DNA from: Octopus vulgaris
Lineage: Eukaryota
Length of the DNA: 64,000 nt
Direction of reading: 5' to 3'
Assembly: GCA_951406725.2 (NCBI GenBank)
Contig: OX597823.1
Location: 56,730,001 to 56,794,000, forward strand
This document shows, piece after piece, positions 14,415 to 64,000 of this stretch (positions are counted from its first letter, which is position 1; every line of letters begins with the position of its first letter). The notes beneath the pieces are model-generated. The model ran no database searches. It was not told the origin of the DNA and was given only the letters and a program-made list of their open reading frames with translations. The translations under genes were made by a program, and so were the position numbers.

Positions 14415-14545
14415 ACAAGGAGTATATTAGTTAATAGTTTGACGCTCAGTGAAAAGGGAGAGTCTTTGACGTTTCGAGCAAAGTTCTTCGTCGGAAAGGA
14501 GAAAGGGATAAGCCTTAAGAAGGAAAAGAAGACGTGAGGATTTAT
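14415..14545 (-). mobile_element. Diverged PLE 3'-end fragment, with HHR at 14464-14498
   Basis: Reverse complement CTTT-CCGACGA-A-GAAC(TTT)GCTC-GAAAC-GTC-AAAG, followed by CTGAGCGTCAAACTA, similar to the PLE tail. Confidence 0.65.
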
Positions 14546-15672: not shown

Positions 15673-15728
15673 AATATATAGATAAATAGATAGATAGGTA
15701 TATACATACACATGTACATGTATTGTTT

Positions 15729-15856
15729 CCCAATCAGATGGTTCCGGGTTCAGTCCACTGCGTGGCACCTTGGGCAGGTGTCTTCTAGTATAGCCTCGGG
15801 TCGACCAAAGCCTTGTGAGTGGATTTGGTAGACGGAATCTGAAAGAAGCCCGTCGT

Positions 15857-15915
<59 letters not shown>

Positions 15916-15933
15916 TGTATGTATGTATGTATG

Positions 15934-15967
<34 letters not shown>

Positions 15968-16210
15968 TGTATGTATGTATGTGTATATGTTTGTGTGTCT
16001 GTGTTTGTCCCCACAGCATCACTAGACAGCCGATGCTGGTGTGTTTACGTCCCTGTAACTTAGCGGTTCGATAAAAGAGACCGATAAAATAAGTACTAGG
16101 CTTACAAAGAATAAATCTTGGGGTCGATTTGCTCGATCGACTAAAGGTGGTGCTCCAGCATGGCCACAGTCAAATGACTGAAACGAGTAAAAGAGTAAAG
16201 GAATAAAAGA
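15729..16210 (+). mobile_element. SINE family B, immediately upstream of the PLE
   Basis: Similar to 45103-45498. Confidence 0.9.
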
Positions 16211-16667
16211 ATATATGTATATTTATGTACATATATATATATATATTTGAACTTTCAACCTTGAACTTGTTCGCATAAACTGTCCCGTTTGTTGTATTTT
16301 TATTTTCTCTTATATTACCACTTTTTTTACATTCATTTCATGCTTCCCACATTTTCCTGAATTTTTGTTCTCCTTTCCGTCTTTCTGCCCTCTCTGGATG
16401 TCCATACTCCGTTTCCTCTGCCTGCACCCCCCCTTTTTTGCCTCCCCCTCTCTCTGCTTCCCTTCTTTCTTTCCTTTTCCGTTTGCCCCGTCTTTTCTGC
16501 CCCTATCGCTTACTTATCTAGTTTTTTCATACGATTATTATTTTTTTTGTTTTTTTGAACGTTTGTTTTTTCCCCTTTTTTCGCTATCCCCTTTTTTTCT
16601 ATTTTTTTCATACGATAATTTTTGTTTTTTTTGTTTTTTCGAACGTTTTTTTTTCCGCTATCCCATC

Positions 16668-19600
16668 ATGCCGGATCCTAGGTCCTACCTCCTCACCCTC
16701 CATCACCGTTTGAAGGATCATCTACGTTCGCTTCCTGTATATTGCCTTCAGCCGTCCGTTAATCTCTCTCTACTTCTTTTTAAAAAAACCCGCTTCTCTA
16801 GCCATGTCTCTTTCCTAAGCCGCTGCCTACATCACCGACTCATCCCTAAAGGTTTCCGCCTCCACTTCCACCCTGCTCTCCACTCGGATTCTTCCATCTT
16901 ACCCATACTCCGCACCACATCTTACCGCCTTATGCGGGCCACCATTCGCTCCAATCTCTCCAAACTACATGCCATCAACCGCCTTCTTCCTCCTGCTTTC
17001 TCCACCTTCTTCTCCTCTCTGCCGCCTCTCTATGCTCCAAACACGCTACGCTTCATTATCCATTTGAATCAACTCTTCCATCAATTTCTTTCTGATACCA
17101 AACTTCGTAAACTCCAATCACTCTTCCATTCCACCCTACCCGACGCCACTACCCCAACTCCTCCACCACCCTTCTCCCCTCCCGATAGGCTCCATCCACC
17201 CACACCTAACCCCACTGCCCCTCCCTACAACCCCTTCTCCCCTCCCGTTAGGCTCCATCCACCTACACCTAACCCTACTGCCCCGCCCAACCACCCCCCA
17301 CACACCTCCCCAATCCCTCCCCCTCAGACCTCCACGAGACCTACCACCCCTCCTACTTCTATTCCACCCACCCCTTCTCCACTTCCGTCTGTTGTTACCA
17401 TTCCCCCCGATCTTCCCCTCTCTGCGGCTGAACGCTCCGTCCTTGGTAGGGGTCTGCGTTTCATCCCCCTCACTCCATCCTGTAAGGAATTCCAGACGCG
17501 AGTTGATGTCCACAGCTTTGTGCGCCGTGTCCGGTTGGGTGCGCATTACCACGACTCGCCACCCACACCCAACGAAGAGGACGACTGCTTCACTGGCCTG
17601 GGCCGCCGACCATCCCCGTGGACGCCTGCTCCTGGCCAGATCCTAGCAGTGGATCTTTTCGCGGGCGCTTGTCAGCGTGCATTGGAGCGGTTCAACTTCT
17701 CCAGGCGCCAACGCCGCCTCAACATCTCCCCGGCTGAGCTCTTGGCTCTTCGTTCCCTCCAACGGCGCGCTGACATTATCATCAAACCGGCTGACAAGGG
17801 TGGAGCTGTAGTGGTGTGGCGCGCGGACCTCTATAGGGCCGAGGCTTTCCGCCAACTCAATGACACCTCCTTCTATTCCCCTCTGCCCTCTAACCCCACA
17901 CGTAGCTACCAACAGACGGTATCCTCTACTGTCCAAGACCTCATCTCGTCCTCCCGTCTCCCCCGCACCGCATCCAACCTAATTGTGCGAACCCCACGTA
18001 CCCCCACCATTTACTTCCTCCCCAAAATCCACAAACCCAACAACCCTGGCCGCCCCATCGTCTCCGCCTGTAACTGCCCCACGGAGATCATCTCTAAATA
18101 CCTCGACCGTGTCCTTGCCCCCCTAGTGGCATCTCTTCCCTCCCACATCCACGATACCAACCATGCTCTCCGGCTTTTCAACTCTTTCTCCTTTCCTCCC
18201 GGCTCCTCCAAAATCCTTTTTACTATGGACATCCAAAGCCTCTATACTGTTATCCCTCACCACGAAGGACTGCAGGCCCTTCGACACTTTCTTGACCTCC
18301 GCTCTAACCCTGTACCTGACACCTCCACACTCATTCGTCTGGCCGAACTTGTCCTTACTCTGAACTGCTTCTCGTTCGCGGGCGAGTTCTACCATCAGTT
18401 CTCGGGAGTGGCCATGGGAACGCGAATGGGCCCCAACTATGCGAACCTGTTCGTTGGCTATGTTGAGGCCCAAATATTCTCTAATTTCACTGGTCCCACT
18501 CCTGAACTATATGGTCGTTATATTGACGACATTATCGGTGCCACCTCACTCTCCCGCGAACATCTAGATTCCTTCCTCTCTTTCGTCCAATCTTTCCATC
18601 CAGCCCTCCACTTCACTTCCACTATCTCCAACACCTCTGTCTCCTTCCTCGACATTTCGGTTAGCATTCTTCACTCCACTCTTACCACCTCCATTCACTA
18701 CAAACACACAGACTCACACTCATACCTCAACTTCTCTTCCTCCCACCCAGAACACACCAAGCTTTCCATCCCCTATTCCCAATTCCTCCGTCTACGTAGG
18801 CTCTGTAGTGACGACCATGACTTTGAGACTCAGTCTCAACGTATGGCTCACCACTTCACCCTACGTGGATACCCCCTCACCACTATCCACACCGCCCTTG
18901 CCAGAGCACGGTCCGTGGACCGTGTATCTGCTCTCTCTCCCCGAACCCGCCCTGTAGTCTCCCGCCTCCCTTTTCCCCTCACTTACCACCCCACGACTCT
19001 ACGTCTCCAACGCACCATTCTTCGAGCTTTCCGTCATCTCCAGTCCGACCCGTCCACTTCACACCTCTTCCCTAACCGACCCCTCCCCTCTTTCAAACGA
19101 GCCCACAACCTTCGAGACCTTTTGGTCCATAGCTCCTTCCCTGACCCTACCTCCCAACCCGGCTCGTTCCCCTGCTCCCGCCCACGTTGCCGCACTTGCC
19201 CTTACCTCTCCAACACCACCCGCCTCACTAGCACCCACCATCGACCCTATCCCATCATCCACTCCTTCACCTGCACCTCCAGCAATATTATCTATTGCAT
19301 CTCTTGCTCTCTCTGCAATTCCTTGTATATCGGACAAACGGGACGCCGCTTGGCTGACCGGTTCGCGGAACACCTTCGTGACATCCACCTTGCGAACGAC
19401 ACACCGGTCTCACGCCATTTCCGCTCCACCGGTCACTCCTTGCAACACCTATCTGTGTTCGGTTTGTCCTTACACAGAGGCCATCCGGATTCCCGTTTGC
19501 GCCGTGAACAGGAATTAATCTTCTCTCTTCGCTCTTATACGCCATTTGGTCTCAACTCTCCCTCCTCCTCATCTAACCCCCCCTCCCCCTCCTCACCTAT

Positions 19601-19886
19601 CCTTTCTCCCCCCCGACCCCTACTTCTTCAGTCCTTCATCCTTTCACCCCTACTCCCCTTCCCTTCTTCCCTCTTTCTCCCTCCCTCTTCCCCTTCCCTC
19701 TGCTCCCTCACTCCCTCTCTCCCTCTTTCCTCCTTCATCCCCCTTCTCCCCATCCTCTCCTCTTCCCCCTTCTCCTCCCCCTCTTCTTACCCTCGCCTTC
19801 TCTCCCCCTCTTCTCCCCCTCCCCCTCTTCTCCTCACTACACCACATGACTTTACACATCACATCACATATGATGTGCCATACTAA
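16668..19886 (+). CDS. Penelope-like element (Neptune-type) polyprotein: N-terminal domain, reverse transcriptase, Cys linker, GIY-YIG endonuclease (~1072 aa)
   Basis: Uninterrupted ORF with an in-frame ATG at 16668 (MPDPRS) that precedes the PLE N-terminal motif FLSRCLHHRLIPKGFRL. RT motifs: KPADKGG, YFLPKIHK..PGRPIVS, FTMDIQSLYT, GVAMGTRMGPNYANLF, YGRYIDD (YIDD at 18519-18530). Linker CSRPRCRTC is Neptune-type. Endonuclease NIIYCISCSLCNSLYIGQTGRRLADRFAEH, ending PFGLN. Confidence 0.95.
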   Translation: MPDPRSYLLTLHHRLKDHLRSLPVYCLQPSVNLSLLLFKKTRFSSHVSFLSRCLHHRLIPKGFRLHFHPALHSDSSILPILRTTSYRLMRATIRSNLSKLHAINRLLPPAFSTFFSSLPPLYAPNTLRFIIHLNQLFHQFLSDTKLRKLQSLFHSTLPDATTPTPPPPFSPPDRLHPPTPNPTAPPYNPFSPPVRLHPPTPNPTAPPNHPPHTSPIPPPQTSTRPTTPPTSIPPTPSPLPSVVTIPPDLPLSAAERSVLGRGLRFIPLTPSCKEFQTRVDVHSFVRRVRLGAHYHDSPPTPNEEDDCFTGLGRRPSPWTPAPGQILAVDLFAGACQRALERFNFSRRQRRLNISPAELLALRSLQRRADIIIKPADKGGAVVVWRADLYRAEAFRQLNDTSFYSPLPSNPTRSYQQTVSSTVQDLISSSRLPRTASNLIVRTPRTPTIYFLPKIHKPNNPGRPIVSACNCPTEIISKYLDRVLAPLVASLPSHIHDTNHALRLFNSFSFPPGSSKILFTMDIQSLYTVIPHHEGLQALRHFLDLRSNPVPDTSTLIRLAELVLTLNCFSFAGEFYHQFSGVAMGTRMGPNYANLFVGYVEAQIFSNFTGPTPELYGRYIDDIIGATSLSREHLDSFLSFVQSFHPALHFTSTISNTSVSFLDISVSILHSTLTTSIHYKHTDSHSYLNFSSSHPEHTKLSIPYSQFLRLRRLCSDDHDFETQSQRMAHHFTLRGYPLTTIHTALARARSVDRVSALSPRTRPVVSRLPFPLTYHPTTLRLQRTILRAFRHLQSDPSTSHLFPNRPLPSFKRAHNLRDLLVHSSFPDPTSQPGSFPCSRPRCRTCPYLSNTTRLTSTHHRPYPIIHSFTCTSSNIIYCISCSLCNSLYIGQTGRRLADRFAEHLRDIHLANDTPVSRHFRSTGHSLQHLSVFGLSLHRGHPDSRLRREQELIFSLRSYTPFGLNSPSSSSNPPSPSSPILSPPRPLLLQSFILSPLLPFPSSLFLPPSSPSLCSLTPSLPLSSFIPLLPILSSSPFSSPSSYPRLLSPSSPPPPLLLTTPHDFTHHITYDVPY

Positions 19887-20216
19887 TACACACACCAACT
19901 AATACATACTAATACGTACTAATACATACCAGTACATACTAATACTTACACCAACCCTATACATACACACGTCCAGACCCCGCATACGCACTTATACTCT
20001 CTCACACACACACACACACACCTATACATACCAATACGTACTAATACATACTAATACATACTAATACATACACCAACCCCATACATACGCACGTCCAGAC
20101 CAATCTTACGCACTAATACTCTCTCATACACACACACACACACACACACCCTTATACATACTAATACATACACCAACCCTATACATACACACATCCAGAC
20201 CCCTCCCACGCACTTT
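19879..20216 (+). repeat. Hierarchical tandem repeat in the PLE 3' UTR (10-nt ATACTAATAC units inside 3 copies of a 100-122 nt unit)
   Basis: TCCAGAC recurs at 19972, 20094 and 20194, each preceded by (CATACTAATA)n and CACCAACCCYATACATAC. Confidence 0.85.
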
Positions 20217-20385
20217 TAGCTGGTCCCTCAACCCTTTTATCAACCCTATTATCTCCCCTTATTTCGCTCTCGCGTCTCATGTTTGATCTTTGACCTCTGG
20301 CCGAAATCAGATCGCCATGTTGATTCGTTAGCTACTGCACGCATTTTTTTCTCTCCTTCTTTCTGTGTTTTTCTCTCTCTGTGTA

Positions 20386-20423
20386 TCTTTCTGTTGAAGA
20401 GCGTAGGCTCGAAACGTTAAAGA
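20386..20423 (+). ncRNA. Minimal type-I hammerhead-like ribozyme in the PLE 3' end (variant core)
   Basis: TCTTT-CTGTTGA-A-GAGC(GTAG)GCTC-GAAAC-GTT-AAAGA. Stem I is TCTTT/AAAGA, stem II is GAGC/GCTC, and stem III is the loopless palindrome ACGT. Confidence 0.7.
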
Positions 20424-20517
20424 CTTGTTTTATTTATATTTCCTGAGCGCCATACTAATACAATTGTTCGTTTGTTTTCCACCTGCCTTCGTCTTTTGTT
20501 TATTTTCATAAAGCTTC

Positions 20518-20599
<82 letters not shown>

Positions 20600-20619: not shown

Positions 20620-20830
20620 GTGTGTCTGTGTCCCCTCACCATCGCTTGACAACCGATGTTGGTGTGTTTACCTGCCCGTAACTTAGCGGTTCGGCAAAAG
20701 AGACTGATAGAATAAGTACTAGGCTTACAACGAATAAGTCCTGGGTGTCGATTTGTTCGACTAAAGGCGGTGCTCCAGCTTGGCCGCAGTCAAATGACTG
20801 AAACAAGTAAAAGAATAAATGAATAAAAGA
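20620..20830 (+). mobile_element. SINE family B 3' half
   Basis: Similar to 45300-45498. Confidence 0.85.
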
Positions 20831-20968
20831 ATATATGTGTATATGTGAATTGTTGCGGAACAGTTCCTTCCTCGAGTCTGAATGCAACATATTTCTTTCT
20901 TTCTTTCTTTCTTTCTTTAGTTATTTTAAATAATAATAATAATAATGATAGTAATGATAATAATATTA

Positions 20969-21079
<111 letters not shown>

Positions 21080-21360
21080 GGTAACTAGAATGTGGAACCT
21101 GAAAACAGAAACAATTCCTATCATAGTAGGTGCATTAGGCATGATAAAAAAATATTCAGACAAATACATAACAAAAACACCAGGACTTACAAACACATAT
21201 AACATACAGAAAATTGCACTACTAGGCACTGCACACATCCTACGCAGAACACTTTCCATACAATAACCATCAGAGCATCACAACAAATCACAGCACATAC
21301 CCAAGGCACACAGAGCTGCGCTCGGTAGTGAAGTGAAAGCACGCTATAAAAATAAAACTA

Positions 21361-21365
<5 letters not shown>
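21080..21365 (+). mobile_element. R4/Dong-type non-LTR retrotransposon 3' end in (TAA)n
   Basis: Translates RMWNLKTETIPIIVGALGMI...IQKIALLGTAHILRRTL*, the REL endonuclease C-terminus. Flanked by (TAA)n, the known Dong target. Confidence 0.85.
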
Positions 21366-21391
<26 letters not shown>

Positions 21392-21394
<3 letters not shown>

Positions 21395-21948
21395 GCCCTG
21401 ATGCAGTACCAGGCAGTGGCTCTCATGGCTTCTGATCTTAACTGATTGGAAGTGTTATCATGTACATTGTTTTGTCTTGTTATAAAAGATGGGCTACAGC
21501 AAATATTCTGCTCAATACCACAGATTTGCTTGTCAGTTGTTTGACCTTAACCAGTTGAGCATGTCCCTTAGTGGCTGACGATATGTGCATCTCTGATCAC
21601 GAGCAGAAGTAGTGGGGGAGCATCATAGCCATGTGTTGAGAGGGATTCTTTGGGGTTTGAATAATTCACCTCTGGAAACATGGGTGGTTCTTTCAACATC
21701 CTTAAACAACCCTTATTCAGGGACCTTTTGAGCGGGATGGGCTACTCAACCTGAAGAAAATTCTAACTGGGCCCCACAAGCAAGGTCATGTGCTGTTTAT
21801 CTTGATATGAGATCACCATGTCGCGCACATATGGTTGTGATGCATGTGCCTGGTGTACCCTTATCAGACGGGTAGTCATGATGGGTATATTGGGCTTCGT
21901 ATATTTTACCCCAGTGTCACTTTGATGGCATGCACTGCTCTCTCACTC
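21392..21948 (+). mobile_element. ~555-bp non-coding element targeting (TAA)n (copies 36263-36800 -, 36858-37195 -, 41015-41475 +)
   Basis: Four copies share sequence. The 5' end ATGCCCTGATGCA is identical in two copies. The 3' end CTCTCTCACTC is followed by a microsatellite in most copies. Confidence 0.8.
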
Positions 21949-21985
21949 AATAATAATAATAATAATAATAATAACAATAATAATA

Positions 21986-22061
<76 letters not shown>

Positions 22062-22092
22062 GAAGAAGAAGAAGAAGAAGAAGAAGATGATG

Positions 22093-22124
<32 letters not shown>

Positions 22125-22194
22125 GATGATGATGATGATTATGATGATGATGATGATGATAAGGATGATGATGATGAAGAAGATGAAGAACAAC

Positions 22195-37882: not shown

Positions 37883-38074
37883 AGGGAAAGTTTATGAAAA
37901 AAACAAAAGACGAAGACAGGTGGTGTACAAAACAAACAGATGTATTAGTATAGCGCTCAGGAATAGAAAAAGTCCTTTACGTTTCGAGCGTACGCTCTTC
38001 TACAGAAATGTACACAGAAAAAACAAGGAGAGAAATAAGGAAAGATAAAAAATGTGTGTAGTGGCTAGCGATCT

Positions 38075-40589: not shown

Positions 40590-42519
40590 ATATATATACA
40601 TGTGTGTGTATGTATGTGAGTGATTGTGTTTACATGAGACCGTAGGTGTGGATTAGTGATATAACGTGTTTGGATAGAAGTGAAGAGTTGAGGAAATTGA
40701 CCCAGGTACTTGAGGGGTACTTCCTTTTATTAATTTATTTAAACCTATCGACTTGGGTGGATTTGGATTCAAAACTGAAATGCTCCGGTTCTGTACCAGT
40801 TTTGTAAACCAGCCAATATTAATATTTCTTCAACCATGAATAATAATGATGATGATGATGATGACGACGACGACGACGACGATAATCCTTTCTACTATGG
40901 CAGAGGGCCTGAAATTTTGGAGGGAGGACTAGTGGATTATATCGAGCCCAGCACTTGATTGGTACTTATTTTATCGACCTGGAAGGGATGAAAGGCATAG
41001 TCGACCTCTTGACTTGATGCAATACCAGACGGTGGCTCATGGCTTCTGATCTTAACTGATTGGAAGTGTTATCATGAGTATTCTGCAAATACCACAGATT
41101 TGCTTGTCATTTGCATGACCGTAACCAGCTGAGCATGTCCCTTGATAGCTGACGATCTGTGCATCTCTGATTACGAGCAAAAGTAGTGGGAAAGCAAAGT
41201 AGTCATATTCTGAGATGAATTCTTTGAGTAATTCACTTCTGGAAACATGGGTATTTCGTTCAGGGAGCTCCTTTTGAGCAGGATGGGCGACTCGATGTAA
41301 AGAAAATTCTAACTGGGCCCCCACCTGCGTGGTCATGCACCATTTATCTTGATATGAGATCACCATGCCTCGCGCATTTGGTGGTAATGCATGTGTCTGA
41401 TAAGCTTTATTAGACGGGTAGTTCTGATAGGTAGATTGGGCTTTGTATATTTGTACCCTAGTGCCACCTTAATGGCATGCGCTGCTCTCTCACTTTGACT
41501 GGTGCAGTCAAAGACAAGTTAGCATTTGCTGGGGGTGAAGGAAGGACGTGTTAAGAATGGCCATACCTGCTCGAGTTGTCTTTCTGTAATGTGCTTATAA
41601 GCCTCTGTTGATCATTGGAGTTTTACAGTTCTTTACATGTCTAAACAACTCTTCCGAAAAAAAAAACAAAAAACAAAAAAAGAAACGGTAGAAGTTTTCA
41701 AACTGGTCTGCTATCACATTACTGTGAACCCTTATGATGTTTTCCGGTGGGTGTGGTCACTCCCTCACCTTTTGTTGAGGTTTGTTTTTTTTGCTTTGTT
41801 TTGAAATCTTACATCTTCTTTTACTTATATATTTTTAGCAATGGTTTGTTTTTCTCTTTTGATTTTCTTGCGTCTCCTCTGGCTCATCGCGAAACGGTGG
41901 AGCGGTGCTGCTGGTAACTTTGACTTTCGGGGCCAGACATAAAAGGACCTCTGTCTTCTTCAGTGAAAGTGTTGTTAGTACCTTTTATCTTTGTTACTTG
42001 TTTCAATCATTCGACTGTGGCCATGCTGGAGTACCGTTTTGAAGAAGTTTTAGTCAAACGAATCGACATCAGTATTTAGTTCTTTTATAAAGCCTGGTAC
42101 TTATTCTATCGGACTTTTGTGCCAAACTGCTAAGTTACGAGGATGTAAACACACCAACAGCGGTTGTCAAGCGGTGATGGGGGACAAACACAGACACAAA
42201 GACACACACATATACGACGAGCTTCTTTCAGTTTCCACCAACCAAATCCACTCACAATACTTTGATCAGCCCAAGGCTATAATAGAACACACTTGGTGAA
42301 GGTACCACGTAGTGGGACTGAACTCGGGATCATGTGCTTGAGAAACAGACTTCTTACCATGAAGCCACGCCAGCGCCTATGTATGTGAATAGGTGGCAAT
42401 ATTTTCACGTGACTAATGCAGTGAGCTAGTAGAATCGTTAGCACTCCGGGCGAAATGCTTAGCGGCATTTGGTCCGTCTTCAGGTTCTGAGTTCAAATTC
42501 CACCGTGGCCGACTTTGCC

Positions 42520-45106: not shown

Positions 45107-45498
45107 AGGAGTGGCTGTGTGGTAAGTAGCTTGCTCCCAACCACATGGTTCAGGGTTCAGTCCCACTGCGTGGCATCTTGGGCAAGTGTCTTCTGCTATA
45201 GCCCCGGGCCGACCAATGCCTTGTGAGTGGATTTGGTAGACGGAAACTGAAAGAAGCCTGTCCTATATATGTATATATATGTATGTGTGTTTGTTTGTGT
45301 GTCTGTGTTTGTCCCCCTACCATTGCTTGACAACCGATGCTGGTGTGTTTATGTCCCCGGCAAAAGAGACCGATAGAATAAGTACTGGGCTTACAAAAAG
45401 AATAAGTCCCGGGGTCGAGTTGCTCGATTAAAGGCGGTGCTCCAGCATGGCCGCAGTCAAATGACTGAAACAAGTAAAAGAGTAAAAGAGTAAAAGAA
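45103..45498 (+). mobile_element. SINE family B (tRNA head, internal microsatellite, CR1-like tail), full length
   Basis: A-box TGGCTGTGTGG, B-box GGTTCAGTCCC, CTTGGGCAAG core and (GTAAAAGA)n tail. Confidence 0.9.
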
Positions 45499-45499
45499 T

Positions 45500-45678
45500 A
45501 TACAAAATTAAGAGGAATGACCACTAAAGTGGACACCCTATATGCTAAACATAGACGTCAAATCACCATTACCACGAAGAATGTGTTGAAAACATATTCT
45601 TCGTGGTAATGGCGATTTGACGTCTATGTTTAGCATATAGGGTGTCCACTTTAGTGGTCATTCCTCTTAATTTTGTAT
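45500..45678. repeat. Near-perfect ~88-bp hairpin with 3-nt loop
   Basis: ATACAAAATTAAGAGG...GAAGAATGTGTT-GAA-AACATATTCTTC...CCTCTTAATTTTGTAT. Confidence 0.9.
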
Positions 45679-45810: not shown

Positions 45811-46634
45811 ATATATATGAAAAAACAAGTCAAAATAGAAAATGCTAAAATAATTTTATAAAGAACATTTCATTACCGGTTACGGCCATTTTGAGACCTT
45901 TTCAACTGTAACGATTAAATAATTAAATTTAGAAAAATTAAAAGAAAAGTTTTTTTAAAGGAATATTTGTATAGTGTTCAAATATAAGTGGCATTCTGCC
46001 TTTCTCTGTCTCCCTTGTTTGCACTTGTGTGTTCGAGGCCGTTGTGAATTCTTGGTAGGGTAGAAGAAGAAGAAGGTTGATGAGGAGAAGGGGTGGAAAA
46101 ATTTGGGAGTGCCTTGATGGTCGTATTTTGAATGGTCAGTGGCGGCTAGCAGTTGCAGTTCAATTCAGGAGAATATTTCTATTGAAAGGTTTGTTTATGG
46201 AATTTGCGTAGGTGTTATACTAAAAAGCATTAGTGATAAAGTTAAGAGGTAGAAGGTGGAGAAGAAGAAGAAGAAGAAGAAGAAGATGACGATGTTGATG
46301 ATGATGATGATGAGGAAGAAGAAGGAGAACGAGAAGAAGAAGATGATGATGATGGTGATGATGATGGCGTCGATGATGATGATGATAATGATGATGATGA
46401 AGAAGAAGAGGCCTCGAACACACAAGTGCAAACAAGGGAGACAGAGAAAGGCAGAATGCCACTTATATTTGAACACTATACAAATATTCCTTTAAAAAAT
46501 CTTTTCTTTTAATTTTTCTAAATTTAATTATTTAATCGTTACAGTTGAAAAGGTCTCAAAATGACCGAAACCGGTACTGAAATGTTCTTTATAAAATTAT
46601 TTTAGCATTTTCTATTTTGACTTGTTTTTTCATA

Positions 46635-57856: not shown

Positions 57857-57859
57857 ATT

Positions 57860-58061
57860 TTGATTCGCTAGCTTCTGCACGCATTTTTTCTCTCCTTGTT
57901 TCTTTCCGTATTTCTTTTCTGTGTATCTTTCTGTTGAAGAGCGTAGGCTCGAAACGTAAAAGACTTGTTTTATTTATATTCCTGAGCGCCATACTAATAT
58001 AATTGTTTGTTTGTATTCCACCTGCCTTCGTCTTTTGTTTATTTTCATAAAGCTTCCCGTT
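57860..58061 (+). mobile_element. 5'-truncated copy of the PLE 3' end, with HHR at 57926-57963
   Basis: Near-identical to 20319-20521 (TGATTCG.TAGCT...CTGTTGAAGAGCGTAGGCTCGAAACGTAAAAGAC...CATAAAGCTTCCC), followed by (TA)n. Confidence 0.9.
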
Positions 58062-63586: not shown

Positions 63587-63625
<39 letters not shown>

Positions 63626-63627
<2 letters not shown>

Positions 63628-64000
63628 TCTTTACTTGTTTTAGTCATTGGACTGCGGCCATGCTGGAGCACTACCTTTAGTCGATCAAATCGACCCCGGG
63701 ACTTATTCTTTGTAAGCCCAGTACTTATTCTATCGGTCTCTTTTGCTGAACCGCTAAGTGACGGGGACGTAAACACACCAGCATCGGTTGTCAAGCAATG
63801 CTAGGGGGACAAATACAGACACACAAACTCCCCCGCCACACACATATATATATATATACATATATACGACAGGCTTCTTTCAGTTTCTGTCTACCAAATC
63901 CACTCACAAGGCATTGGTCGGCCCGGGGCTATAGCAGAAGACACTTGCCCAAGATGCCACGCAGTGGGACTGAACCCGGAACCATGTGGTTGGTTAGCAA
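63626..64000 (-). mobile_element. SINE family B, running off the window end
   Basis: Reverse complement of family B. Other copies at ~560-670, 7195-7510, 9295-9410, 9980-10170, 26050-26470, 32545-32885, 38185-38395, 41985-42380, 47030-48005, 53378-53520, 55300-55625 and 61160-62020. Confidence 0.9.

Follow-up and report, generated by a model that had tools for sequence, protein, structure and literature searches.

A probable recent, coding-intact and 5'-truncated daughter copy of a Neptune-type Penelope-like element family that inserts into (TA)n in Octopus vulgaris

The window, by which we mean the whole 64-kb stretch of DNA that was analysed, contains at 16247..20521 (+) a Penelope-like element (PLE), assigned below to the Neptune type, which forms a single unit without a 5' pLTR and is probably 5'-truncated at 16247. 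Its 5' junction lies at (AT)8 (16231..16246), the end of a TA-rich tract at 16211-16246, and its 3' junction at a perfect (TA)18.5 (20521..20557), beyond which lie (TG)n and the tail of a SINE without its head (20623-20835). The element comprises a 5' untranslated region (16247..16667, +), which is 51% T and contains 19 runs of at least four T, two upstream ATGs and a ~75-nt duplication (16503-16576 and 16584-16659, +); an ORF of 1072 aa (16668..19886, +); a 3' untranslated region (19887..20316, +) with a 122-nt tandem repeat (19888-20171); and a ~205-nt 3' module (20317..20521, +), which corresponds to a pLTR and is amplified more than any other part of the family. The element's 3' end is not repeated upstream, so that the preliminary description was right in noting that the upstream pLTR is missing.

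The ORF, also described earlier as intact, is single, unbroken and complete from Met 16668, which aligns with the N-termini of homologs, to the stop codon at 19884-19886. The stop-to-stop frame (16251-19886) counts 1211 codons. At the element's composition, 969 open codons would be expected by chance with a probability of ~8e-11; the openness of the 5' extension (139 codons, p 0.08) and the 3' extension (102 codons, p 0.63) is explained by composition. A coding role for the in-frame stretch 5' of 16668 was rejected, since this stretch is open by composition and carries indels in other copies. The encoded protein consists of a helical N-terminal region, a Pro-rich hinge, a reverse transcriptase (RT), a linker, a GIY-YIG domain and a low-complexity tail. 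The Pro/Thr-rich hinge (aa 157-237; 17136..17378, +) has a pLDDT < 50, exceeds that of most aligned homologs by ~60 aa and contains a 63-nt tandem duplication. The P/S/L-rich C-terminal tail (19560..19886, +) extends 109 aa past the last conserved motif, compared with 2-18 aa in 91 homologs, and differs in length between copies through indels in C-runs.

All three motifs reported earlier for this single ORF (YIDD, Cys linker and GIY-YIG) were located. The RT (17784..18596, +) runs from the DKG motif (KPADKG at 17784, aa 373) to YIDD (18519-18530) and is followed by a CX4CXXC linker (C836, C841 and C844; 19173..19199, +) and a GIY-YIG endonuclease (19284..19559, +), with CxxC at 19296, YIG at 19326, the CCHH residues C877, C880, H902 and H917, and the conserved residues R898, E947 and N963. 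The Pfam RVT_1 match (E 5.7e-8) lies above its cut-off and the GIY-YIG match (E 0.0076) below its cut-off; the motif residues of the latter align with 22 homologs, and the nuclease deviates from the near-invariant LGT of homologs. A PDB sequence search gave no matches. The AlphaFold model of the protein (pLDDT 82) retrieved TERT at all of ranks 1-8 in Foldseek (E 9e-10 to 5e-8), and the RT, which has a telomerase-like predicted fold, is on this model telomerase-related.

Several features bear on the clade. A CX2-5CxxC linker between RT and endonuclease (EN), here at aa 836-844, is a feature of the Neptune clade, and is found in 82 of the 84 stored YIG-motif proteins, the window's protein counted among them. 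The linker-to-CCHH spacer is 24 aa long, compared by eye with ~25 in Neptune and ~7 in Nematis (Fig. S2 of PMC8557442). The RT3 segment is, by eye, identical at 16/29 and 15/29 positions to two Neptunes and at 7-8/29 to Penelope, Poseidon and Nematis (7/29 to C_remanei); that of the EN-less Coprina-like Selagine1 likewise scores 15/29. In a tree that included no labelled references for Neptune, Poseidon or Nematis, the RT groups in a clade of 9 rows (100/96) with a related locus, L024, whose hammerhead is identical to the one printed for the A. digitifera element typed Neptune (PMC4209133 Table S1). The presence of the linker departs from the Penelope/Poseidon clade, which has no linker Zn finger, and the spacer from the short one of Nematis. 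The C-terminal EN, the DKG motif and the canonical RT3-RT4 spacing (without IFD) differ from the traits of Naiad/Chlamys, and the Hydra-clade traits (DKT, no CCHH, CxCX5C linker) are absent. The motifs, together with the indirect anchor via L024, thus support a Neptune-type, EN+ Penelope-like element, as had been suggested, Neptune itself being described as paraphyletic (PMC8557442).

Among the 240 matches listed, protein identity is at best 55-58% across long matches and peaks at 69% over one fifth of the protein, and no homolog carries a cephalopod label. RT identity is 59% to a shark, 51-59% to anthozoans and 54% to gastropods. Horizontal transfer from cnidarians was weighed and is not claimed, as the gastropod pair falls in separate lineages and the backbone is unresolved. 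In the viral collection 12 stretches fit a pattern, none of which was confirmed as a protein relative.

Examples of the Neptune clade are the A. digitifera element (BACK01051917, PMC4209133 Table S1) and DrerioNep1 and Neptune-1_Ac (PMC8557442 Figs S1-S2). The window element shares with these a single ORF ordered RT, CX2-5CxxC linker and CCHH GIY-YIG, the DKG motif without IFD, a minimal hammerhead (min-HHR) near the 3' end, microsatellite insertion and 5' truncation. Unlike them, it has a hammerhead with U at core position 6 (U6), a longer Pro-rich hinge and the 109-aa low-complexity tail, and its last conserved codon lies ~830 nt from the hammerhead, compared with ~115 nt in L024. Poseidon PAc of Anolis carolinensis (PMC11167929) similarly combines an RT with a C-terminal GIY-YIG, a min-HHR upstream of a fixed 3' end and AT-rich targets. 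However, PAc is without a linker Zn finger and its ORF begins inside the hammerhead, whereas in the window element 421 nt or more separate the ATG from the 5' boundary, and the target is a (TA)n repeat. The octopus Naiads (Naiad_Ovul and Naiad_Obim; PMC8557442 File S1) share the (TA)n preference, the linker Zn finger and CCHH, but have an N-terminal nuclease, DKA, usually an IFD and no canonical hammerhead. Naiads in cephalopods have been described as old remnants (PMC8557442).

Truncated copies of the last ~200 nt, mentioned earlier as present elsewhere in the window, number two, and both have their 3' ends in (TA)n. One (57857..58060, aligned 57857-58058, +) is 92.2% alike and is bordered 5' by a mix of (TG)n and TA; the other (37883..38071, -) is 79.3% alike and has (TA)n on both sides. 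Both carry the U6 core. All three family 3' ends in the window therefore abut (TA)n, for which the chance expectation is ~7e-5, runs of (TA)>=8 making up 4.2% of the window. The loose 3' ends in DNA-type public runs likewise gave a TA consensus in X1 (55 contigs, agreement 0.76) and X4 (74 contigs, 0.67), and two relatives (L081 and L086) end in (TA)n as well. This bears out the earlier claim of (TA)n at the insertion sites. Alternatively, the 3' (TA)n could be a tail written or expanded at integration, with a nuclease that merely favours AT-rich DNA and does not recognize (TA)n. The anole Poseidon cuts AT-rich DNA with a preference for ATT (PMC11167929), the window is very rich in microsatellites, and the 57857 copy has mainly (TG)n in its 5' flank. 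A 3' tail would not, however, account for the full copy and the 38071 copy being flanked by (TA)n at either end, the (TA)n ends of the two relatives speak against it, and a microsatellite bias has been described for linker-bearing PLEs (PMC8557442); we regard this alternative as improbable. A large target-site duplication was rejected, as the SINE tails of the two sides are just 86% alike.

Within the 3' module lies a minimal type-I hammerhead-like motif (20386..20423, +), with a helix I of 5 bp, C3 at 20391, U at position 6 (20394), an extra A, a helix II of 4 bp, G10.1-C11.1, a CG palindrome and a predicted cut after 20418. Compared with the consensus of Cervera and De la Pena 2014 (PMC4209133), helix I, the extra base after A9, G10.1-C11.1, GAAA, the palindromic 15.2-16.2 and NUH are all present, but the core departs from CUGANGA: U6 occurs in all three family copies, while all 21 motifs from 88 related loci carry A. 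A model built from 15 motifs of related loci alone matched the hammerhead with E 1.4e-7. At gathering level, Rfam gave no matches over the 64 kb, and at the 3' end it gave solely microsatellite-driven matches, mostly to miRNA families; the exact 27-nt hammerhead pattern had no matches in viral, metagenome and genome contigs. An alternative register (U3 at 20394) was rejected, as it reduces helix II to 1 bp and abolishes helix I. The stretch is barely more conserved than the 96 nt behind it (37/38 and 32/38 versus 92/96 and 76/96 in the two copies), and this comparison does not support selection on the 38-nt motif. Thus, of the 3' ribozyme proposed earlier, the hammerhead-type motif near the 3' end stands and its activity is doubtful. 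With U6 where 21/21 related motifs carry A, cleavage is probably weak.

A hammerhead that is fully active in vivo, through dimerization or with help from protein, and that sets the ends of the element's RNA seems unlikely to us. In its favour, the remaining min-HHR features are all present, helix I is a perfect 5 bp in two of the three copies, position 17 is just A or U, both of which are permitted, and the anole motif cleaves when protein helps (PMC11167929). Against this stand the invariable U6, the unfavourable fold prediction (z -1.15), the lack of in vitro cleavage by single min-HHRs (PMC4209133), and a natural A6C variant for which a kobs under 0.1 per min is reported, in agreement with earlier mutagenesis (PMC3088659). 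Moreover, genomic copies run across the cut site, and depth does not rise downstream of it. The short copies have one common 5' end, which lies upstream of the cut site. As inserted copies that span this site imply uncleaved templates, the common end points to such templates, in agreement with a weak U6 ribozyme.

We tentatively interpret the ~205-nt copies, with their common 5' end near 20317, as run-off copies of an upstream module that end at the RNA's 5' end, a reading that we hold at a little below an even chance. A less probable explanation is that they represent a separate, non-autonomous, retrozyme-like element moving alone, or that they reflect a strong RT stop near 20317. In favour of this explanation are the sharp step in depth at the module (3.7- to 13-fold in summed depth in 4/4 runs), a joint that leads back from the 3' tail to 20316, and loose ends which show that other families have just the hammerhead stretch in common. 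Animal retrozymes have also been argued to come from PLE pLTRs (bioRxiv 10.64898/2026.07.22.740005). Yet retrozymes form tandem arrays, whereas both window copies are single, and the modules match the end of the full element base for base in register (of the last 96 nt, 92 are identical in the 92% copy and 76 in the 79% copy). Joints from 16316-16357 to 20263-20344 were also considered as signs of an intron; this was rejected, as their sides are shorter than 30 letters, in T/C-rich DNA and without GT-AG ends, and they possibly represent internal deletions.

The window copy differs by ~0.25% from the dominant form in public runs (8 letters in a 2965-nt contig of X3 and 6 in 2541 nt of X11, records 11-15), which agrees with its earlier description as a young copy. 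That description had also regarded high divergence among copies as contrary evidence; this applies in part, as the two short copies in the window are old and not young (8% and 21% diverged). Among 27 selected ORF variant sites listed, with 45 variant rows left out, 15 are synonymous, compared with 26-30% expected (p 0.001-0.005). Between 76 and 85% of the element's 432 words are contained in 20 runs from 8 studies under 3 organism labels. Across these three organism labels the family is abundant, and some of its members are old. From first to last bin, summed depth rises ~42-fold in X1 and X4, although summed contig depth is not equal to copy number. The 2965-nt contig of X3, a run guessed to be RNA, is a single contig without the subfamily variants of X1, X4 and X11; this would agree with a single expressed source locus but was not counted because contigs cannot show expression, and no RNA holder is on record among the runs containing the element's words.

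A SINE-like repeat (15728..16210, +) stops ~36 nt upstream of the element and is a neighbour outside it; it is 5'-truncated and retains a box B-like motif, while its box A-like segment is lost. ARAGORN found no tRNA genes in the window, so that a tRNA derivation of the SINE is presumed from the box B-like motif. SINEs are common here, with at least 10 heads in 64 kb. T>=4 runs stop Pol III. The earlier observation of an upstream SINE is therefore correct as to the repeat, whereas its proposed role as a stand-in for the pLTR is not supported, given the loss of the box A-like segment, the 19 T>=4 runs before the ATG and the frequency of SINEs.

In two contigs (X3 record 17 and X11 record 9) the match begins exactly at 16247; they extend 104 and 219 nt further upstream with different sequence, and the TA flank is not matched. 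These upstream stretches may be host flanks of other copies, in which case 16247 would be a natural boundary. None of the 15 joints listed (there are 89 further) leads from the 3' end back to 16247, and a tandem form of the family was not seen among these 15. The relatives L004, L005 and L063 are tandem-type units, in which the hammerhead precedes the ORF match by ~510 nt (L004) and ~740 nt (L005). A unit with a 3' hammerhead alone is the ordinary 5'-truncated state (PMC4209133 Table S1), and the window copy is probably 5'-truncated at 16247. We consider it highly improbable that the locus is instead an autonomous source, with its complete form starting at 16247 and with transcription driven by the SINE or an internal promoter in place of a pLTR. 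In its favour, the ORF is full-length from the homologous Met onwards and has no break, the two contig starts are also what a natural boundary would produce, and the 421-nt 5' UTR could accommodate an internal promoter like that of D. virilis Penelope (PMC8557442). However, ~12 letters are private to the window copy and missing from most of the family, including the dominant template in X3 and X11. The SINE has lost its box A-like segment, Pol III would stop at the T runs 5' of the ATG, and SINE tails also touch the downstream flank and the 38071 copy. In addition, the short copies in the window are far older than the full copy. The designation as an autonomous master element is not supported, given the missing 5' pLTR, the contigs that continue upstream of 16247 and the private letters. 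As the copy stopped short of the promoter, it probably yields no transcript except by read-through from the host, and is probably a dead end.

The analysis shows how the copy is built, that its junctions lie in TA repeats, that it is young, and that the family is abundant and steeply graded in its 5' truncation. We conclude that the locus is probably a recent, coding-intact, 5'-truncated daughter copy of an abundant and long-lived Neptune-type family inserting into (TA)n. On the model of the PLE cycle as it is known, an RNA containing the 3' module twice would be made at a source locus that possesses an upstream pLTR. The RT-GIY-YIG protein would nick a (TA)n tract and use the nick to prime cDNA synthesis, which would begin at a fixed position in the RNA that lies ~100 nt downstream of the hammerhead's cut site. 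Starts at the downstream module would yield body copies of varying length, of which the window copy would have halted at 16247; starts at the upstream module would yield the ~205-nt run-off copies ending at the RNA's 5' end. Internal RT initiation and the use of uncleaved RNA have been shown for the anole Poseidon (PMC11167929), from which we infer this mechanism for a Neptune. Cleavage would separate the site where the RT starts from the body of the element; the hammerhead fold would then have been kept in full for tens of millions of years with U6 fixed, and could for this reason have been attenuated, or put to a new use in binding protein or positioning the RT, which we offer as speculation and consider rather doubtful.

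Publications already cover Neptune-type PLEs, their microsatellite bias, their minimal hammerheads and the recent activity of PLEs in octopus. For Octopus vulgaris, 190 PLE families making up 6.83% of the genome are reported, with 31 families comprising 336 recently active insertions (PMC13282606). The present family may be among them; the accessible supplement of that study contains no match to the motif and no 'Neptune', and its accessible text gives no clade names, targets or ribozymes. The practical value of the locus lies in a near-consensus intact ORF of a young (TA)n-inserting family, which suits the question raised in PMC8557442 of whether the linker Zn finger steers the nuclease to microsatellites. 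Other Neptunes are equally suitable for this; in the literature searched, in vitro work on a full PLE protein was found for a Poseidon alone. The element also suits a second question of PMC8557442, on the role of hammerheads. The family-wide U6 core is the one detail that a specialist might not expect, and no report of it was found in the literature searched, most subscription papers and repeat databases being outside our reach. If the U6 reading is true, the common 5' end of the ~205-nt copies would mark the transcription start, internal initiation in a Neptune would gain evidence from genomic sequence, and the family would amount to a natural experiment on whether PLE hammerheads act for the element by cleaving at all.

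From our sequence comparisons, we conclude that the Penelope-like element (PLE) at 16247-20521 (+) is a young daughter copy with an intact ORF, not a master element, and that its family type is already known. It lies in animal-type sequence with 37% GC and many microsatellites. An ORF scan of the window gave a single long frame (16251-19886), in which Met 16668 aligns with the N-termini of complete homologs, yielding a protein of 1072 aa with DKG, YIDD, a CX4CXXC linker, CCHH and YIG. Pfam scored RVT_1 over and GIY-YIG under the cut-off, and the top eight PDB matches of a structure predicted from a 23-row alignment (pLDDT 82) were telomerase RTs. The frame, the motifs and these fold matches bear out the intact RT, linker and GIY-YIG ORF of the preliminary description. 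The ORF continues for 109 aa beyond the last conserved motif, compared with 2-18 aa in 91 homologs; this tail is unlikely to be a domain, because an open frame is expected from its composition and it contains indels in other copies. In the nuclease, positions 19527-19535 (aa 954-956) encode LRS, compared with a near-invariant LGT in aligned homologs. No variant of this stretch was present among the variants listed for four public sequencing runs (X1, X3, X4 and X11) whose contigs were aligned to the element, and LRS may be a family trait.

Clades were defined according to the available sections of PMC8557442. The linker rules out Penelope/Poseidon, and neither Naiad nor Hydra is compatible with the domain order, DKG and CCHH. 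Compared by eye with the rows of Fig. S2 in those sections, the linker-to-CCHH spacer of 24 aa is like that of Neptune and unlike that of Nematis. The RT3 segment, also compared by eye, scored 16/29 and 15/29 to two Neptunes and 7-8/29 to Penelope, Poseidon and Nematis, and also 15/29 to the EN-less Selagine1. RT trees were built from fetched sequences only, using FastTree (157 rows) and IQ-TREE (36 chosen from those rows). The IQ-TREE analysis placed the element RT in a 9-row clade with L024, one of the related loci, with support of 100/96. L024 has a hammerhead 116 nt after its ORF match, identical over the 41 nt compared to a motif printed for A. digitifera in the accessible part of PMC4209133, where the element carrying that motif is typed Neptune. 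Linker, spacer, RT3 segment and the clade with L024 thus support the assignment proposed earlier, and we word it as Neptune-type because the anchor through L024 is indirect. Over long matches, identity to the best homologs is 55-58%, and no cephalopod name occurs among those listed (the best 120 of 738 and the best 120 of 612 matches).

The proposal that the element is a master copy is not supported: contigs run past 16247, an upstream module repeat is lacking, and the neighbouring SINE has lost its box A-like segment. One contig each from X3 and X11 has a match starting exactly at 16247 and extends 104 and 219 nt further upstream, and these extensions do not match the element's TA flank. The simplest reading would be that the family is longer and that the element was cut at 16247. 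Self-BLAST of the window found no repeat of the element's 3' end upstream of it, in agreement with the missing upstream pLTR reported before. Table S1 of PMC4209133, as available, contains many partial PLEs with a 3' hammerhead only, and the same text states that more than one unit is required for further PLE transposition. Three relatives (L004, L005 and L063) are tandem-type units. Several low-depth joints connecting 16316-16357 (5' UTR) to 20263-20344 (start of the 3' module) were also observed, which are possibly internally deleted non-autonomous forms and possibly low-complexity artefacts.

The SINE at 15728-16210 had been suggested to stand in for the missing pLTR. Its first ~25 nt are missing, including the box A-like segment, which is present in 4/7 other aligned heads. 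Runs of at least four T end Pol III transcripts, and 19 of them precede the ATG. Both observations argue against such a role. The window holds 10 heads and 14 tail matches of this SINE, with TA tracts, and SINE tails also adjoin the element's downstream flank and the module copy at 37883-38071. Because these SINEs are common here and carry TA tracts, their adjacency is considered a by-product of TA targeting.

Of 432 words sampled from the element, 76-85% were present in 20 public runs (8 studies, 3 organism labels), and four of these runs (X1, X3, X4 and X11), all consisting of contigs, were compared with the element. The 26,542 contigs of X1 were divided into 7,658, 9,457 and 9,427 at 99+, 95-99 and 90-95% likeness, and young and older subfamilies therefore coexist. 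Summed depth, which is not copy number, was ~42-fold higher in the last than in the first bin (X1 and X4), a slope that is the usual 5'-truncation gradient. Between the element and the dominant form, 8 of 2,965 letters (X3) and 6 of 2,541 (X11) are different, a divergence of about 0.25%. Under the calibration given in the available part of PMC13282606 (a distance of 0.09 equals 25 My), which applies provided that the host is an octopus, it would be less than 1 My old, and the corresponding ages of two short copies of its 3' module would be about 20 and 60 My; youth, as previously proposed, thus applies to the element and not to the short copies. At 12 of the 40 variants listed (of 85), at least 85% of the X1 depth differs from the element's letter. 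Within the same 40 of 85, 15 of the 27 ORF variant sites are synonymous, compared with 26-30% expected (p 0.001-0.005), an excess that would be expected of lineages descending from active sources. The PMC13282606 sections report 190 PLE families in O. vulgaris, 31 of them recently active, and the family of this element may be among those catalogued in that repeat library.

The sequence at 20386-20423 fits the minimal type-I hammerhead described in the PMC4209133 text available, with a U-rich lead-in, a 5-bp helix I and NUH, and also has an extra base after A9, G10.1-C11.1, a 4-bp helix II and a CG palindrome. A covariance model trained solely on 15 motifs from related loci, with 89% of its cells paired and two-sided changes in 7/8 pairs, matches the three family copies (E 1.4e-7, 1.1e-6 and 4.9e-5). 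Core position 6 (20394) is U in 3/3 family copies, whereas it is A in 21/21 motifs from the 88 related loci. U6 seems to be family-wide, since no variant at 20394 was found among the 40 of 85 variants listed for the four runs. The 3' ribozyme of the preliminary description is therefore retained as a hammerhead-type motif on the basis of structure and the covariance model, although its core U6 departs from related motifs. In the available portions of the respective papers, a naturally occurring A6C hammerhead cleaves slowly (PMC3088659) and single minimal hammerheads gave no in vitro cleavage (PMC4209133). A literature search on A6U changes listed a single paper, which deals with twister ribozymes. 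What merits further study is the U6 hammerhead, together with the 3' modules of fixed length. The stretch 20387-20426 is matched at 90% or more in 108 (X1) and 132 (X4) contigs with other sequence beyond it, and at least one further family therefore has the same motif. A sister 3' module at 14460-14502 (-) has A6 but a U4 to C change (model E 3.5e-4); short stretches are common to it and the family module, and (TA)n is not directly behind it. Another PLE-type minimal hammerhead at 46539-46630 (+), with U3-A8 core covariation, a CCGG palindrome and (TA)n ~50 nt later, is likely to be the 3' terminus of a second PLE family that targets TA.

The expected (TA)n on both sides of the element was found as (AT)8 on the 5' and (TA)18.5 on the 3' side. 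Self-BLAST of the window also confirmed truncated copies of the last ~200 nt (20317-20521): two were detected, at 57857-58060 (+) and 37883-38071 (-), 92% and 79% alike, and the 3' ends of both lie in (TA)n. Runs of (TA) with at least 8 units make up 4.2% of the window, and the consensus of loose ends beyond 20519 is a TA repeat both in X1 (55 contigs) and in X4 (74 contigs). From these junctions and a hypothesis cited in the PMC8557442 sections, we infer that the linker-bearing nuclease nicks (TA)n. According to the accessible part of PMC11167929, the anole Poseidon protein nicks AT-rich DNA, initiates reverse transcription at an internal RNA site downstream of the hammerhead and works on uncleaved RNA; by analogy, this scheme fits the element. 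Its 3' end has a fixed position ~100 nt past the predicted cut, and depth rises 3.7- to 13-fold at the module-start bin in 4/4 runs. Because both short copies start at about 20317-20325 and there is no added rise past the cut site, the inserted cDNAs appear to have been copied from RNA that had not been cleaved; such templates would be in keeping with a weak U6 core. The common 5' end near 20317 has three possible explanations: the RNA may begin there in an upstream module, which would make the short copies run-off copies; reverse transcription may be strongly arrested at this point; or a separate non-autonomous element may have its end here.

Among the related loci, L081 and L086 carry PLEs that terminate in (TA)n. 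In L086 (93-277 and 3283-3384), a PLE unit lies behind another family's hammerhead module and (TA)11, an arrangement from which it follows that TA-targeting elements accumulate in the same tracts. L081-L083 and L086, and also L084, L085, L087 and L088, are animal-type PLEs on bacterial MAG contigs, which are probably host DNA binned into MAGs; L081-L083 are copies of one family, 97-98% identical. The SINE of the window is in two parts with a microsatellite between head and tail, for example at 45135-45502 (+), 63625-63993 (-) and 41981-42347 (-), and several tails occur without heads. Directly downstream of the element, (AAT)n arrays flank a stretch that resembles a repeat (20929-22186) and possibly represents the 3' ends of other retroelements favouring AAT repeats.
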